Source: a virus (lineage: Duplodnaviria; Heunggongvirae; Uroviricota; Caudoviricetes). From it: DNA of 6,176 nt. Every line of letters starts with the position of its first letter. The first letter of the stretch is position 1. The notes under the pieces are model-generated. The model worked only from the letters and a program-made list of their open reading frames with translations. It was not told where the DNA came from and made no database searches. The stretch is from the IMG/VR virus record IMGVR_UViG_2671180770_000013; one strand, 5' to 3'. The translations under genes were made by a program, and so were the position numbers. Below are positions 4-6,176 of the stretch, one piece after another.

Positions 4-1932
4 TCAGCGACTGTAACCATTCACTCCTCCGGACAGCTTCGCTGCCAGTTCTTTAAGGGTTGGCCGGGTCGTCTCTTCTTCCCGGGATTTTGCCAGTACA
101 GCCAGATCAAGCTGCCAGCGTTGCACGGACACACGTAATGCCGCGTAGGCATACACCAGGCAGTCCAGCGCTTCGTTACGCCGCTTTTTGTTATCCCACA
201 GCAGACGCATCTTTCCTTTTTCCCACTTCTCCACCAGCTCTTCCGCCACCAGTTGCTGCGCCTCTGTCTGCGAAAAAATCTCCGGATCATCAGGAAAACG
301 GATGGCATACGACGTGGCTTCATCCGCAGGCGTGGGATCGGCTTTCATACGGGCATAGAGAATTTCTTTTGCGGTGTCCGTCCCCACTTCGCACAGATAC
401 ACGCCCCGCTGATTGCGGGTTTTTGGCATGGTGATCACCGGCTTGCCATAAACAGATGCGCCTTTTACCGGCAGCACCCGGAAAACACCGTGTTTTTTTG
501 ACCTCTGATAGACAATTTCGCCATCGATCCCCCCGGTGTCCCAGCAGACACGGGAAATGGTCATTTCGGTTCCGTCTGCATGGCGGTATTTTTTGTTGAT
601 CGCCACATCCACACGTAACAGCGTCTCTTCCTCATCGGGACGCCCCATAATGATGATTTTATCCACCAGAAAGGCTTCCTCTCCCGGAGCCCATCCCCAG
701 ACATACATCTCAAAACGGTTTCGCTGCGAGTCAATGCCCGCCGTCAGATAAACCACCCGGGAAGGCACCGCAGCCGTGTAACGCACAACCTTATCCATCA
801 GCACCTGGTGATCGAGTTTTTCGCCCACGGCCTCTTCCCAGGTCTCGCCCAGCGTGGTGTTCACAAAGGTTTTCAGGCCGTTGGGATCTTTCAGTGCATC
901 CAGCCAGTCATAGACAATCTGTACCCAGGTGGTGAACGGACTGTACGCCGTCCAGATATGGAATGTGATGGAGCGCGGCGGCGGAATTTCATTATCCGCG
1001 GCGCTGAAAAACGTCAGACCGTCGCGGGTCCACATCCCCGTGTTTTCGCAGATCCACCGCCCGTTGCTCTGGTCAAGCTCAGACTGATGGATCACGCAGC
1101 CATGATGTTCACAGAGGTAGAAAACGCTTTCGGGGCTGTCCTTCTCCCATTTAAGGCCAAAAGGCGTGGACTCATCGCCAAATTTCAGATACTGCGCCTC
1201 CCCACAGTGCGGGCAGGGCACATAAAAACGCATGAAATGCGCCGACTCGTTGGCCGCTTTTTCGATCTGGCAGGAGCCTTTTATTTTAGGCGTCGAGCCG
1301 CGAATGGATTTTGGCCATACCGAGCCCTCAATACGCTTATCCCCCAGCAGGGTTGGCGAGCCCTCTTTTTCGACATCCGGCTCGAACGAGGAAAGTTCGT
1401 CATAGCAGACCACGTCCACGGATTTTTCACGGTAGTTTTTTGCTGCCGCACCACCCAGGCACCAGAAGCCCACCCCCGATGAAAAGCGTTTCAGCGTGAG
1501 AGTATTGTCACGATGTTTACGACCCAGCCACGGGGAAAGATCTTTCAGGCATGGCACGTCCCGAATCGTCGCCTCCACGTGAGACTTCATAAAATCTTCA
1601 GCGGCAGAATCCGTGGGCTGAAAAAGCAGACTGTTTCGGGATTTATGCTCAATAAAATACCCGGCGACTCCCAGCAACATCTTTGTATAGCCAACACGGG
1701 CAGATTTAATCAGATTAACAGTGCGGATCTGATCATTCCCCATACTGTTCATGATGGCGATCTGGAACGGCAGCGTTTTCCATTCGCCGTCACCGTATGA
1801 GGATTCTTTCGGCAGATAATAATACTGGTCAGCCCATTCAACTGCCGTCATCGGTACAACCCTGACCAGAGGCTGCAGCGCAACCGAAACGGCGGCCACC
1901 ATATTATTCAGTTGTTGCTCTGATATATTCAT
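4..1932 (-). CDS. A: phage terminase large subunit (lambda gpA-like)
   Basis: 642-aa ORF. From the MNIS start it aligns along its length with my recollection of lambda gpA (e.g. TAVEWAD..YYLPKES, KSARVGY(T/S)KMLLGV, GDKRIEGSVWPKSIRGSTPK, CPHCGE.QYLKFGD, FHIWTAYSPFTTWVQIV, KKRRNEALDC). Start placed at the ATG at 1932 by that alignment; the ORF track extends to 1989 with a non-homologous 19-aa leader. Stop at 4-6. Confidence 0.9.
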   Translation of the reverse strand: MNISEQQLNNMVAAVSVALQPLVRVVPMTAVEWADQYYYLPKESSYGDGEWKTLPFQIAIMNSMGNDQIRTVNLIKSARVGYTKMLLGVAGYFIEHKSRNSLLFQPTDSAAEDFMKSHVEATIRDVPCLKDLSPWLGRKHRDNTLTLKRFSSGVGFWCLGGAAAKNYREKSVDVVCYDELSSFEPDVEKEGSPTLLGDKRIEGSVWPKSIRGSTPKIKGSCQIEKAANESAHFMRFYVPCPHCGEAQYLKFGDESTPFGLKWEKDSPESVFYLCEHHGCVIHQSELDQSNGRWICENTGMWTRDGLTFFSAADNEIPPPRSITFHIWTAYSPFTTWVQIVYDWLDALKDPNGLKTFVNTTLGETWEEAVGEKLDHQVLMDKVVRYTAAVPSRVVYLTAGIDSQRNRFEMYVWGWAPGEEAFLVDKIIIMGRPDEEETLLRVDVAINKKYRHADGTEMTISRVCWDTGGIDGEIVYQRSKKHGVFRVLPVKGASVYGKPVITMPKTRNQRGVYLCEVGTDTAKEILYARMKADPTPADEATSYAIRFPDDPEIFSQTEAQQLVAEELVEKWEKGKMRLLWDNKKRRNEALDCLVYAYAALRVSVQRWQLDLAVLAKSREEETTRPTLKELAAKLSGGVNGYSR

Positions 1933-2410
1933 CCAGCAAATCCGGTAATTTATCCCCTGCCCGCGCACACTGATTTGCGCCCTTTGCAATAAGGGTTTTC
2001 AGATGGTCAATATGACGTGGCGTTAAATCCGGGAACTGTCGCTGCATGGATAACGGAATGGAATCAAGCGTACTGGACAATGCCATCGCCAGTTTGCTGA
2101 GGGCGAAAACGCAAAAGTCTGAATCGATGAGCTTACCTTCGGTTACCTGATTTTTAAGTTTTTGAGCTACAGCCTGTTCTTCTGTCAGTTCAGCTCTGGC
2201 CCGAAGCAGCCTTTCCTCCAGTTCTCCCCCGTCATCAGGTGTTCTCTGATTGTGTTGTCGCCGCTCGCGATCTATCTCCAGTACAGTTTTAACGTCATAT
2301 AAAACTTCCCTCCCCCGACGTTCAACAGGAGGAACGCCCCATTTATCAAATGCCTGAACAGAGATACCGATGGAGGAGGCCATATCACTTTTATTCAATA
2401 AAAAGGCCAT
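1904..2410 (-). CDS. nu1: phage terminase small subunit (lambda Nu1-like)
   Basis: 168 aa from the ATG at 2410, which has GGAG 5 nt upstream. Resembles recalled lambda Nu1 (G.EVLYD, FC.F.LS, LD..PLS.QR.FP.L..RH.D.LK, LL.EYI). Sits directly upstream of gpA with a 29-nt overlap and about 215 bp downstream of cosN, as in lambda. Start is uncertain: ATG at 2428 and the ORF-track start at 2515 are alternatives but lack a Shine-Dalgarno. Confidence 0.8.
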   Translation of the reverse strand: MAFLLNKSDMASSIGISVQAFDKWGVPPVERRGREVLYDVKTVLEIDRERRQHNQRTPDDGGELEERLLRARAELTEEQAVAQKLKNQVTEGKLIDSDFCVFALSKLAMALSSTLDSIPLSMQRQFPDLTPRHIDHLKTLIAKGANQCARAGDKLPDLLDEYIRATTE

Positions 2411-2440
2411 CTCCTCTCCATAAGTCATCGATAAAAAGCG

Positions 2441-2588
2441 AAACAACAACCATGTGTTTTTGCAAAACCATTTGATATCATTGACATTTTTCGCATTGAC
2501 GACATCAAAACACATCGTAAGGTTGTTGTATTTATTTTATTTTCACCTTACTTATCAATTAGATATACCAAACAATTAAACAACAACC
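2441..2588 (-). promoter_or_regulatory. candidate cosB (terminase small-subunit binding region) with three GGTTGTTGT(TT) repeats
   Basis: Identical 11-mers AAACAACAACC at 2441-2451 and 2578-2588 (minus-strand GGTTGTTGTTT) and an inverted copy GGTTGTTGT at 2521-2529, with an AT-rich tract between the distal pair. Arrangement resembles lambda R1/R2/R3 but the repeat sequence differs from the lambda R sites as I recall them. Confidence 0.4.
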
Positions 2589-3219: not shown

Positions 3220-3768
3220 TCAGGCTTGAATACCTTTATCGAATCCCGGTAATAAAAACTGTCCCTGTCTCTCCAGACGTTCCAGCTTTGCAAGCAATTG
3301 AGGTTTTTTCGTTCTCCCCCAGCGATTGAGCAGACGGCCTGACATGCTGGCGACATCCTTCTCTTTCATGTACTCCAGCATTACGGCGTTACGTTCTGCT
3401 TCATAACTTTCGCTGTACTTACGGAGTTCTGCTGACATCCAGTTAAACGCATTGATATAGGCTTCTTTAACAGCATCGGCTTTTGCCCCGTTAAATCCCA
3501 TAACCAGCATAACGAAGCCACTAAAGTCCATGCGGTAGTAAATCTGTTTCTTGTCAAAAATACCTAAGTCATTGATTTTCTCGACGGCCCAAAAATGGGT
3601 TGTCGAGAATTCCTCAGAACATCTCAAACATTTAATAGCCCTAATCACATGCTGATGGCGTTTACCAAATGCCCTGGCAATCTGGAAGGTGTCAGTTACC
3701 GGTTGACCTTCTGCTGCGGTAACTAACTGGCGAAAGTCGAAGTCATGATTCGCAATTAATTCATTCAT
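3220..3768 (-). CDS. rha: Rha-family phage regulatory protein
   Basis: 182 aa from the ATG at 3768. N-terminal signature LVTAAEGQPVTDTFQIARAFGKRHQHVIRAI is typical of the Phage_pRha domain. The ORF-track start at 3837 is a GTG giving a 23-aa extension; the ATG was chosen by domain boundary. Confidence 0.7.
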   Translation of the reverse strand: MNELIANHDFDFRQLVTAAEGQPVTDTFQIARAFGKRHQHVIRAIKCLRCSEEFSTTHFWAVEKINDLGIFDKKQIYYRMDFSGFVMLVMGFNGAKADAVKEAYINAFNWMSAELRKYSESYEAERNAVMLEYMKEKDVASMSGRLLNRWGRTKKPQLLAKLERLERQGQFLLPGFDKGIQA

Positions 3769-3921
3769 GGCGTTGCCTGCTTCTTTGAAATGAACCTTTG
3801 CCGCACAGGAAACCAGCCCACCGAGGCTCGCCAGCACTAACTGGTATCCTCAAAGGCCCATTCCAAAGGGTCAGGTTCGGTGTTTATTGTGCGCTGCGGT
3901 GCGCGGTGAAATACCGGTACA

Positions 3922-3986: not shown

Positions 3987-4424
3987 TTATTTTAAGCACT
4001 GCGTCCTGATGTATTCCTGCAGGTAGTTAACCTGCGCGGTTATCTTGTCGATTCCACCTCGGAGACGGTAATAATTGAGTTCAGCATCTGCTGTAAGTCC
4101 TGGGCTTTCTCCATCGCCCATGCTGCTGGCTCCGGTCGTTGACTTTGCACAGGTGGCGGAGACTTGCAGGCGCTTACGCCCAGCAGAAACATCAGCACGG
4201 AGACTTTCGATAGTCGCATTAGCATCAGCAAGCTCCTTTGTGTATCTGGCGTCAAGTTCTGCTACATCACGTTGCCGCTTCTGCATATCAGCGATGATGG
4301 ATGTGGCTTTATCGCGCTGCTCTTTGTAGGCGATGGCGTTATCACGGTAATGATTAACAGCCCATGACAGGCAGGCGATAATGCAGATAACCAGAGCGGA
4401 GATAATAACGGTTACCCTGCTCAT
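3987..4424 (-). CDS. Rz: i-spanin Rz
   Basis: 145 aa from the ATG at 4424. N-terminus [31 protein letters not shown] closely matches recalled lambda Rz. Has an N-terminal transmembrane segment and a coiled-coil-like body. Its start overlaps the endolysin stop (ATGA). GGGGG Shine-Dalgarno upstream. Confidence 0.9.
4040..4225 (-). CDS. Rz1: o-spanin Rz1 (lipoprotein) embedded in Rz in the +1 frame
   Basis: 61 aa from the ATG at 4225 with AAGGAG 7 nt upstream. Signal peptide with lipobox (LLGVSA-C), then a Pro-rich mature region ([13 protein letters not shown]). Lies entirely inside Rz in another frame, as in lambda. Confidence 0.8.
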
Positions 4425-4918
4425 TGTTGCCCCCACAAACAGACTTCACGCTCAATCTCGCGGCGAGTCATCAGCCCTTTCCATTGCTTACCGCCAGCGT
4501 ATGTCCAGCGCCGTAGCTGATCACATGCGCTTTTGATATCGCCCTGGTTTATTTTGCGAAGAAGCGTCGATGTTCTGAAATTGCCAGCGCCCACGTTGTA
4601 AACGAACGAGTAAAGAGCGCCGCGCGTTGTTTCCGGTATATCGACTTTGATGTACGGGTTTATTTGTCTGGCGACCGTGGCAAGGTCTTTATTCAGGAGG
4701 GCTTTGCATTCTGCTTCGGTATACGTTTTACCGGGCATGATGTCTTTTCCGGTGTGTCCGTGACATACAGTCCATACGCCAACGATATCTTCGTATGGTA
4801 TGTAGCTGACACCTTCCAGGCCATCGTCACCACTCGGACCAGTGATGAGCACAGACGCTATGGCAACAGCCCCACCACCAATAGCAGCAGCAACGGCTTT
4901 TCGTAATGATGGAGGCAT
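4421..4918 (-). CDS. R: SAR endolysin (phage-21 R-type lysozyme)
   Basis: 165 aa. N-terminal Gly/Ala-rich signal-anchor-release segment ([20 protein letters not shown]). Lysozyme catalytic motif E-x8-D-x5-T ([24 protein letters not shown]). Near-identical to my recollection of phage-21 R and DLP12 RrrD. Confidence 0.9.
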
Positions 4919-5124
4919 TATTCACCTCTCACAGCCTTGCGCTTATCTTCTTTAATCTTGAAATAAAGGTTTGTCAGATACGTCAGCAGGCCAAACAGCA
5001 GACTCCCCAGCACACCTATCGCCACCCACTGGGACGGAGAGACTTTGTCCAGCAGCTGCAGTAACCAGTATCCCGTCCCCACCGCTGACGTGGTGTATGA
5101 CACACCCGTTGTGATTTTTTCCAT
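4918..5124 (-). CDS. S: pinholin (phage-21 S-type class II holin)
   Basis: 68 aa, [68 protein letters not shown]. Two transmembrane segments and a charged C-terminus. Stop overlaps the endolysin start by 1 nt. No in-frame upstream start for an antiholin form. Confidence 0.85.
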
Positions 5125-5167
5125 CTGATGTATGTCTCCGTCACCGCCGACAGAAAATGAAAGTAAA

Positions 5168-5204
5168 GGAAAACAAAAAGCCGCCAGTGTCGCCCACTGA
5201 CGGC
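5168..5204 (-). terminator. intrinsic terminator of a short late leader RNA (tR'-like)
   Basis: Minus-strand RNA GCCGUCAGUG-GGCGA-CACUGGCGGC (10-bp stem including one U-G pair) followed by UUUUUGUUUU. Ends about 44 nt upstream of the holin ATG. Confidence 0.5.
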
Positions 5205-5281
5205 CAACGCCGGGAGCCGTGATTATGGCATTCAGGCTCTGCTAAAAATGCCAGATAACATTCCGGCTCCCCCCCTGATTC

Positions 5282-5310
5282 AGGTTATAAATGACACAAT
5301 ATCTTGACAA
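5282..5310 (-). promoter_or_regulatory. candidate late promoter (pR'-like)
   Basis: Minus strand TTGTCA (5310-5305), then TATAAC after a 15-bp spacer or TAACCT after 17 bp. Lies about 105 nt upstream of the tR'-like terminator with a structured segment between. Identical in the second repeat copy. Spacing is suboptimal and the assignment is tentative. Confidence 0.25.
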
Positions 5311-5380
5311 CACCCATCACTGTCTGTCAGAAAATGTACTGCCAGATATAAGTATCATGTGAAACCCAACTATCCTTCTT

Positions 5381-5423
5381 AGCCAGTACTTCTCCGACGA
5401 AAGTCAGTACTGGCTGTTTTTTT
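5381..5423 (+). terminator. plus-strand intrinsic terminator directly 3' of the gene X stop
   Basis: AGCCAGTACT..(GAC-GAAA-GTC)..AGTACTGGCT: 10-bp perfect stem with an inner GAAA-capped 3-bp stem, then G + T7. On the minus strand no U-run follows the hairpin, so it is terminator-like only on plus. Confidence 0.5.
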
Positions 5424-5424
5424 A

Positions 5425-5808
5425 TTATGCTGCCGGTGCATTTATCTCCAGCACCAGACTTTCTATCTCAACGCCATACGCTGCATTTTTTGTAACATCC
5501 GTCAGCGTCAGCGCATTCAGCCCCAGTGTCAGACTGTCTTTTATGACCTGGAATGCCGGGCCAGCCACTCCATTCAGTTTCGGAGTAACCGTGGCACTGC
5601 CGGCGGTGAACACCAGCTCCAGCGTCTGCCAGTCGTTACCGTAATCGCCGAACTCCCCCAGCTTCGTGTTTCCGGCTTTCCTGTGATGCATCAGATTCAC
5701 TCTAGCCACCCACTGGGACGGAGAGACTTTGTCCAGCAGCTGCAGTAACCAGTATCCCGTCCCCACCGCTGACGTGGTGTATGACACACCTGTTGTGATT
5801 TTTTCCAT
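5425..5808 (-). CDS. chimeric ORF: pinholin N-terminal 35 codons fused in frame to the C-terminal 92 codons of an unidentified protein (gene X)
   Basis: ATG at 5808 is the duplicated holin start. Residues 1-35 are identical to the holin, with one synonymous difference. After the junction at 5704/5705 the frame continues through [92 protein letters not shown] to TAA at 5425-5427. Whether it is expressed or functional is unknown. Confidence 0.45.
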
Positions 5809-6063
5809 CTGATGTATGTCTCCGTCACCGCCGACAGAAAATGAAAGTAAAGAAAAACAAAAAAGCCGCAAGTGTCACCGACTGACGGCCAACGCCGGGA
5901 GCCGTGATTATGGCATTCAGGCTCTGCTAAAAATGCCAGATAACATTCCGGCCTCCCCTGATTCAGGTTATAAATGACACAATATCTTGACAACATCCGT
6001 CACTGTCTGTCAGAAAATGTACTGCCAGATATAAGTATCATGTGAAGTACATCTACCCGTTTT

Positions 6064-6099
6064 AGCCAGCGTCCTTCAGAGTGGGCGCTGGCTTTTTTT
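6064..6099 (+). terminator. plus-strand intrinsic terminator, copy-2 variant
   Basis: AGCCAGCGTCC-TTCAGAGT-GGGCGCTGGCT (11-bp stem with one U-G pair) followed by T7. Flanks match copy 1 but the stem interior differs while still pairing. Confidence 0.5.
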
Positions 6100-6100
6100 A

Positions 6101-6176
6101 TTATGCTGCCGGTGCATTTATCTCCAGCATCAGACTTTCTATCTCAACGCCATACGCTGCATTTTTTGTAACATCC
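6101..6176 (-). CDS. 3' end of unidentified gene X (continues beyond window)
   Basis: Same reading frame and C-terminus as the gene X segment in the chimera ([24 protein letters not shown], one Val-to-Met difference). Stop TAA at 6101-6103. Open to the window edge. Confidence 0.5.
   Translation of the reverse strand, partial: DVTKNAAYGVEIESLMLEINAPAA

Follow-up and report, generated by a model that had tools for sequence, protein, structure and literature searches.

A 3' fragment of the prophage esterase gene nanS-p joined in frame to a duplicated pinholin gene start in a draft Escherichia coli contig, probably by misassembly

NanS-p, class II pinholins and the genes of the window

NanS-p is a prophage sialate O-acetylesterase that is encoded between stx or Q and the holin gene S, and its expression is raised by prophage induction (PMC10462455). 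The functional literature describes a protein of three domains (PMC10462455; bioRxiv 10.64898/2026.04.10.717836). DUF1737 is the anchor in the phi24B orthologue gp84, a capsid-decorating protein (bioRxiv 10.64898/2026.04.10.717836), the central SASA/SGNH domain takes the 9-O-acetyl group off sialic acids, and the C-terminal lectin-like jelly-roll is thought to be a carbohydrate-binding module (PMC10462455). As cargo between Q and the lysis genes, nanS-p is co-transcribed with the late genes after induction. In the full-length esterase of phage 434 (616 aa) the domains follow in the order DUF1737, SASA and DUF6645; the catalytic core matches PDB entry 3PT5, i.e., the E. coli NanS/YjhS 9-O-acetyl-N-acetylneuraminate esterase, and the C-terminal domain matches PDB entry 6YP6 ("NanS-p"). 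The second system of relevance is the class II pinholin of phages 21 and 933W, a protein of ~68–71 aa with two transmembrane domains, a SAR-type TMD1 and a pore-forming TMD2.

The stretch of DNA analysed here (6,176 nt, hereafter the window) corresponds in full to one contig of a draft E. coli assembly, GCA_001277695.1; this contig, CYAV01000159.1 (6,176 bp), ends within a repeat. All of its genes are on the minus strand except that for DUF3950, and its features are listed in Table 1. The intact holin gene encodes both transmembrane domains, and the phage 434 record annotates its equivalent as a pinholin.

In the relatives, the late region is present in single copy with the order Q, small membrane proteins (DUF3927 and others), esterase, holin, endolysin and Rz, i.e., the upstream neighbour of the holin is the esterase, and Q lies ~3 kb further upstream. 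Because the relatives place the esterase in between, Q is not expected to adjoin the holin gene in phages of this group, and the premise of the sequence-only reading that Q normally occupies that position is wrong for it. The same reading correctly assigned the gene to the cargo slot between Q and S: the nanS-p gene occupies this known slot of lambdoid and Stx phages, and the fragment in the window falls within the late region between Q and the holin gene S, 300 nt upstream of the holin.

Some further observations concern the remaining genes. The 203-aa frame of the small terminase gene is a mechanical ORF; the source record gives a product of 168 aa (1904–2410), and translation probably does not include the additional N-terminal residues. 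On the minus strand, 2627–2638 is an exact lambda cosN core, GGGCGGCGACCT, with the small terminase gene (Nu1 type) on one side and the lysis/Rha module on the other; since this core lies inside the contig, the sequence extends across the cos junction, as would be the case in an integrated prophage or a concatemer. Within Rz, an out-of-frame ORF at 4040–4255 (minus strand) carries the lipobox-like motif LLGVSAC and is consistent with a nested Rz1 o-spanin; an Rz1 o-spanin nested in the i-spanin gene is annotated equivalently in the phage 434 record.

Table 1 Features of the window, with coordinates counted from its first nucleotide
Feature	Position	Strand	Basis or remark
Lambda-type large terminase	4–1932	-	642 aa
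Nu1-type small terminase	1904–2515	-	mechanical 203-aa ORF
DUF3950 gene		+	
Rha-family regulator	3220–3837	-	
Rz	3987–4436	-	
SAR endolysin (phage lysozyme, RrrD-like)	4421–4918	-	Pfam Phage_lysozyme, E = 1.6e-45
Intact 68-aa class II pinholin	4918–5124	-	Pfam Phage_holin_2_1, E = 2e-32, profile positions 1–63 of 64
Esterase–holin intergenic region, first copy (allele 1)	5125–5424	-	99.7% identical to L139–L141
3' terminal fragment of NanS-p-type SASA-family esterase gene	5425–5704	-	sequence and profile matches
Blunt esterase/holin junction	5704–5705	.	aligned with both parents
Duplicated 5' fragment of class II (S21/933W-type) pinholin gene	5705–5808	-	Pfam and nucleotide identity
Esterase–holin intergenic region, second copy (allele 2)	5809–6100	-	repeat families D1–D4; own hairpin variant
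3' end of second esterase copy, 434-type allele, runs off contig	6101–6176	-	translation

The esterase fragment

Translation of the minus strand over 5428–5703 yields 92 residues that end in LEINAPAA and are followed by a stop codon at 5425–5427. The sequence-only reading had flagged this C-terminal peptide (at 5425–5700) as beta-rich, free of a zinc motif, not basic, not Q, and of no assignable family. The peptide is real; it contains no Cys and no zinc-finger pattern, its translated residues are not basic, and the guess of a beta-rich structure is borne out by a match to the beta-sandwich C-terminal domain of NanS-p (6YP6). The view that no family could be assigned is not: the peptide is identical at 91 of 92 positions to residues 525–616 of the phage 434 esterase, a protein also encoded by many E. 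coli prophages, and its coding sequence is identical to that of the esterase of E. coli S1-IND-01-A at 279 of 279 nucleotides. It covers positions 61–115 of the 119-position DUF6645 profile (Pfam; 29.6 bits against a cut-off of 27), matches the C-terminal end of PHROG 143 (a 634-position profile) as well as PHROG 3591 and PHROG 6393, and aligns with residues 127–218 of the 6YP6 chain, the second half of the domain, with E = 2.4e-11. Judged from these matches, 5425–5704 encodes the distal half of the C-terminal lectin-like jelly-roll (DUF6645) of NanS-p. The gene family is already known and structurally characterised (3PT5 and 6YP6), and no new family is involved.

A Q antiterminator at 5425–5704 was considered and rejected: there is no Pfam match to a Q antiterminator family (Phage_antiter_Q / Phage_antitermQ) at E ≤ 1, no Cys is present, and Q is located elsewhere in the relatives. 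A novel, unassigned beta-rich moron in the slot of Q would agree with a peptide that is truly beta-rich and is not Q, and with the Q–S slot being a hotspot for cargo, yet this reading has next to no probability, given 99% identity to an annotated, structurally characterised gene family and the presence of Q further upstream in the relatives.

The fragment thus belongs to the same family as NanS-p of 933W (L0105/z1466), phi24B (vb_24B_21/gp84) and phage 434 (CPT_434_71; YjhS-like); with the last of these it shares 99% identity over the C-terminal 92 residues and the same DUF6645 and 6YP6 jelly-roll. Further features in common with these systems are the place directly upstream of a class II holin and the downstream intergenic region with terminator hairpins. 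In contrast to them, 5425–5704 retains no more than the final 15% of the protein; the fragment lacks DUF1737, the SASA catalytic domain and the initial half of the jelly-roll, and a holin N-terminus is fused to it. A SASA/SGNH catalytic domain, which is present in the full-length relatives, was found neither in ORF 5425–5808 nor elsewhere in the window, and ORF 5425–5808 has no Pfam match to the capsid-binding domain DUF1737, its N-terminus being holin-derived.

Since the fragment comprises the last 92 residues only, it would be neither catalytic nor an independently folding binding module, and ORF 5425–5808 is, on sequence grounds, a piece of a NanS-p family member and not a functional member; 9-O-acetyl sialate esterase activity is not expected of a 92-aa jelly-roll fragment. 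When the 6YP6 alignment is mapped onto phi24B, the fragment starts at about residue 549 in phi24B numbering, and Y510, Y515 and Y540 (same numbering), three of the four aromatic residues with a proposed role in sugar binding, would be absent from it.

Incomplete forms of NanS-p are found in other contexts as well. In a degraded P2-like prophage of a closed E. coli genome (LR134157.1; 6001–6516 of L007), P0014 combines a membrane-anchored N-terminus of ~50 aa, which sits after an M15 peptidase where LysB sits in P2, with the last ~118 residues of NanS-p, and represents a real NanS-p 3' remnant in a foreign context. P0006 and P0011 (~195–201 aa) contain DUF1737 and DUF6645 without SASA and are apparently NanS-p with a deletion of the catalytic domain, and many short ORFs with DUF6645 only (PHROG 6393, 12088 and 3591) are apparently truncated remnants or partial genes at contig ends.

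The chimeric frame and the two-allele repeat

Upstream of 5705 the frame does not continue into esterase sequence, as had been expected of a long gene with its 5' part beyond 6176, but consists of the first 35 codons of a duplicated holin gene and stops at an ATG at 5808 (or at a mechanical TTG at 5871). The sequence-only reading had overlooked that the copy in the window is a 3' fragment fused to a holin 5' fragment. An interruption of the frame in related genomes, which it had named as evidence against itself, exists in reversed form: the relatives are intact (616 aa) and the copy in the window is the truncated one. The resulting chimeric ORF 5425–5808 encodes 127 aa, composed of pinholin residues 1–35 and esterase residues 525–616, and corresponds to protein record CTT82547.1.

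The holin fragment contains the ATG (5806–5808), codons 1–34 and the first two bases of codon 35, and spans TMD1 and the inter-helix loop without TMD2 (Phage_holin_2_1 profile positions 1–34 of 64; Pfam). It is identical to the holin alleles of L001, L003, L004 and L006 at 104 of 104 nucleotides, and the N-terminus of the chimera is identical to the intact holin of the window at 35 of 35 residues. The chimeric frame is preceded by the holin's own ribosome-binding site and ATG, the same as those of the intact gene. Compared with the pinholins of phages 21 and 933W, the chimera has TMD1 and the loop, but neither TMD2 nor the charged C-terminus, so that no pinholes would be formed, and it falls outside the two-TMD class. 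A fold predicted for the chimera with AlphaFold2 was set aside as uninformative, being a single-sequence model with a pLDDT of 50 in which the TM helix is mispredicted as strands. Among ~15 billion proteins, CTT82547.1 forms a cluster of one member, and no other protein combining holin and esterase parts was found.

Repeat analysis (families D1–D4) shows that the sequence at 5016–5500 recurs at 5700–6176 with a period of ~684 nt. Followed in the direction of the late genes, the region runs from an esterase end (allele 2) through intergenic region 2 and holin codons 1–35 to the junction, and continues with esterase codons 525–616 (allele 1), intergenic region 1, the intact holin and the endolysin. 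The esterase sequence at the contig end comprises 24 codons and a stop codon, and its 76 nt match 5425–5500 with one mismatch. The two copies are 92% identical, and their differences are clustered in the hairpin beside the esterase stop codon, where each copy has a stem of its own that is complementary within itself. For copy 1, prophages in complete genomes (L139–L141) show 99.6% identity and S1-IND-01-A shows 98.8%, and copy 2 is 99% identical to an O121 prophage allele over its first 192–296 nt. A recent self-duplication within one phage was rejected for these reasons, i.e., the 92% identity, the distinct hairpin alleles, and the match of each copy to a different natural allele.

Concerning the intergenic hairpins, a terminator scan located a terminator-like hairpin at 5205–5179 (minus strand), in the late-gene direction and just upstream of the holin ribosome-binding site; in its equivalent in copy 2 the stem is weakened by three substitutions. 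Plus-strand hairpins with a T-run abut the esterase stop codons at 5380–5424 and 6064–6100 and represent the two alleles. Three terminators are annotated in the equivalent intergenic region of the phage 434 record, and an Rfam scan of the window returned no family at its gathering score.

Origin of the junction

At the junction, ...CAGTGGGTGGC abuts TAGAGTGAATCTG... in frame, without microhomology and without an N. Including base 5704, the esterase fragment is identical to the natural allele L006, a rare type, at 280 of 280 nucleotides. The idea of an untemplated, frame-restoring insertion of one base at the junction, which arose when the comparison took in alleles of the 434 type only, was dropped, as the L006-type allele accounts for this base.

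We infer that the holin–esterase fusion is probably a false join between two prophages. On the real chromosome, the esterase sequence at 5425–5704 would most likely be the end of an intact gene for ~616 aa that adjoins the holin on its upstream side, as it does in the complete genomes most closely related, and the truncated, holin-fused ORF would have arisen in a short-read draft through the abutting of two repeat-bounded pieces from different prophages. Piece A (6176–5705) would consist of allele 2 of both the esterase end and the intergenic region, followed by the shared 5' segment of the holin gene, and piece B (5704/5703–1) would begin inside the esterase end of allele 1.

The positions of the breakpoints are the strongest argument for an artefact. 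Over their last 280 nt, the esterase allele types are distinguished by four sites only (5454, 5521, 5545 and 5704), and over the first 105 nt the holin types by two (the equivalent of 5020, and 5107); the holin site at the junction is a common biallelic SNP (T 70%, C 29%; 127 loci). The junction touches one esterase SNP and one holin SNP, for which the chance is ~3e-4 to 2e-3 in the case of a real breakpoint. Contigs of sister drafts start at the window equivalents of 5544 (two assemblies of the same CY series) and 5520, each one base past a SNP (5545 and 5521), and the start of piece B at 5703 is likewise one base past 5704. At the right end, the window terminates 46 nt beyond allele SNP 6130, as expected of a de Bruijn node boundary. 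As SNPs are where de Bruijn-graph contigs begin and end, the coincidence of breakpoints with SNPs favours a false join.

The junction is, furthermore, without support elsewhere. Among the matches listed from 5,426 complete E. coli genomes and 50,697 phage records, it is represented only by two pieces 547–683 bp apart, which is the normal single-copy layout, and never by one contiguous piece, and exact junction patterns gave zero matches in IMG/VR, the GTDB species representatives and JGI metagenomes. With the endolysin (4421–4918) as lineage marker in an exact-sequence look-up, complete genomes with an identical endolysin were found to have one copy and an intact 616-aa esterase (L139–L141), and their alignment to piece B (99.6% identical) ends exactly at 5703. 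Breakpoints at allele SNPs, a junction seen nowhere else and a single copy in closed genomes are what a false join would be expected to display.

The exact TerL was discarded as a lineage marker, being too widely shared among mosaic prophages with differing lysis modules. The exact 642-aa large terminase of the window is present in 191 blocks of the collection, and in the ten places shown (L129–L138) the modules of the lysis and Q region joined to it differ widely (DUF1327/DUF1398 types, a lambda-S-type holin, IS insertions), which illustrates mosaicism at the cos/Nu1 boundary. L139 and L140 are two prophages in one closed E. coli genome, CP148357.1; they match the first 683 nt of piece B (esterase 3' end, intergenic allele 1 and holin 5' end) equally well (99.6%), and have an identical endolysin protein but different downstream modules. 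Repeats of this kind fragment short-read assemblies.

A scaffold joint at the identical position in the holin gene, after ...CAGTGGGTGGC, is present in the L008 draft, where a single N gives rise to a spurious 97-aa "holin". The protein in question (P0028; four member sequences; GCA_020861245.1, JAJBBW010000083.1, 570–863) has a duplicated TMD1 and is an artefact, with an 86-nt overlap duplicated on either side of the N. The two cases have in common the position, the duplicated flanks and a spurious chimeric or duplicated protein. They differ in that L008 keeps the literal N and joins overlapping pieces that are truly adjacent, whereas the window has no N and its two pieces would derive from different prophages. 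L008 was not accepted as independent evidence of the junction, being an N-bearing scaffold joint whose boundaries are explained by SNP branch points.

As to how such a join could have been made, the accession series and annotation style suggest that GCA_001277695.1 was produced by the Sanger pipeline. The pipeline paper reports 4–10 misassemblies per test genome, and its SSPACE and GapFiller steps are greedy and may create false joins, with N gaps closed afterwards (PMC5320598). A de Bruijn assembler cannot make an N-free, overlap-free join without spanning reads, which speaks against an artefact; a putative route to the N-free abutment would be a single n introduced by SSPACE and filled by GapFiller. 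By our own reasoning, an order of A before B, if derived from read pairs, would correspond to a gap of about -680 nt, a further point against an artefact, and strongly negative gaps are usually rejected by scaffolders. Base 5704, as the rare L006-type allele, fits a simple real breakpoint equally well.

A real junction, formed by illegitimate recombination between two lambdoid prophages or by a ~684-bp tandem duplication with allele exchange, is the more tentative explanation and appears rather unlikely. The esterase 3' end, the intergenic region and the holin 5' end would have been copied upstream of the lysis cassette, leaving the 127-aa ORF as a non-functional scar that is possibly transcribed and translated, as the ATG and ribosome-binding site of the holin are still in place. 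No N interrupts the contig at the join, as would be expected of real DNA, and the perfect agreement of the fragment with the L006 allele, base 5704 included, is in line with a natural origin. Lambdoid prophages that share a cell recombine frequently, and complete genomes contain real NanS-p 3' remnants fused to foreign N-termini (P0014, P0027 and P0032), which indicates that scars are not rare here. However, both breakpoints would then fall by chance, to the base, on allele-distinguishing SNPs (joint chance ~1e-3), a signature also carried by genuine starts of contigs from sister assemblies; RecA-independent rearrangements in E. coli seldom lack microhomology altogether; the junction and the protein are unique in all collections searched; and the closest complete relatives are single-copy.

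All evidence for an artefact also applies to the proposal that the chimera is functional, in which a membrane-targeted TMD1 with half a jelly-roll, produced from the late operon, would act in trans on the timing of lysis in the manner of an antiholin. The fusion is in frame with the holin translation signals retained, its holin part consists of precisely TMD1 and the loop and breaks off immediately ahead of TMD2, and in the phage 21 pinholin TMD1 reportedly restrains TMD2. Yet an in-frame join has a chance of one in three anyway, half a beta-sandwich is unlikely to fold (the single-sequence AlphaFold2 model being poor), and no second occurrence is found, hence no conservation, all of which makes such a function highly improbable.

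The finding is ordinary under a false join and a real junction alike. The sole unusual aspect of the locus is the truncation and the fusion to the holin N-terminus, for which an assembly artefact is the most likely explanation. Were the junction real, it would add one more recombination scar of the sort common around nanS-p, with a small chance of biological consequence; were it both real and functional, it would represent a lysis regulator born of an illegitimate duplication and expressed just ahead of the true holin. The main value of the analysis is one of caution. The flagged peptide belongs to NanS-p, a well-studied prophage cargo and decoration gene, and the holin–esterase chimera, known from a single protein record, probably stems from the scaffolding of multi-copy lambdoid prophage sequence. 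Such joins seed databases with spurious singleton proteins, of which P0028 is a second example.
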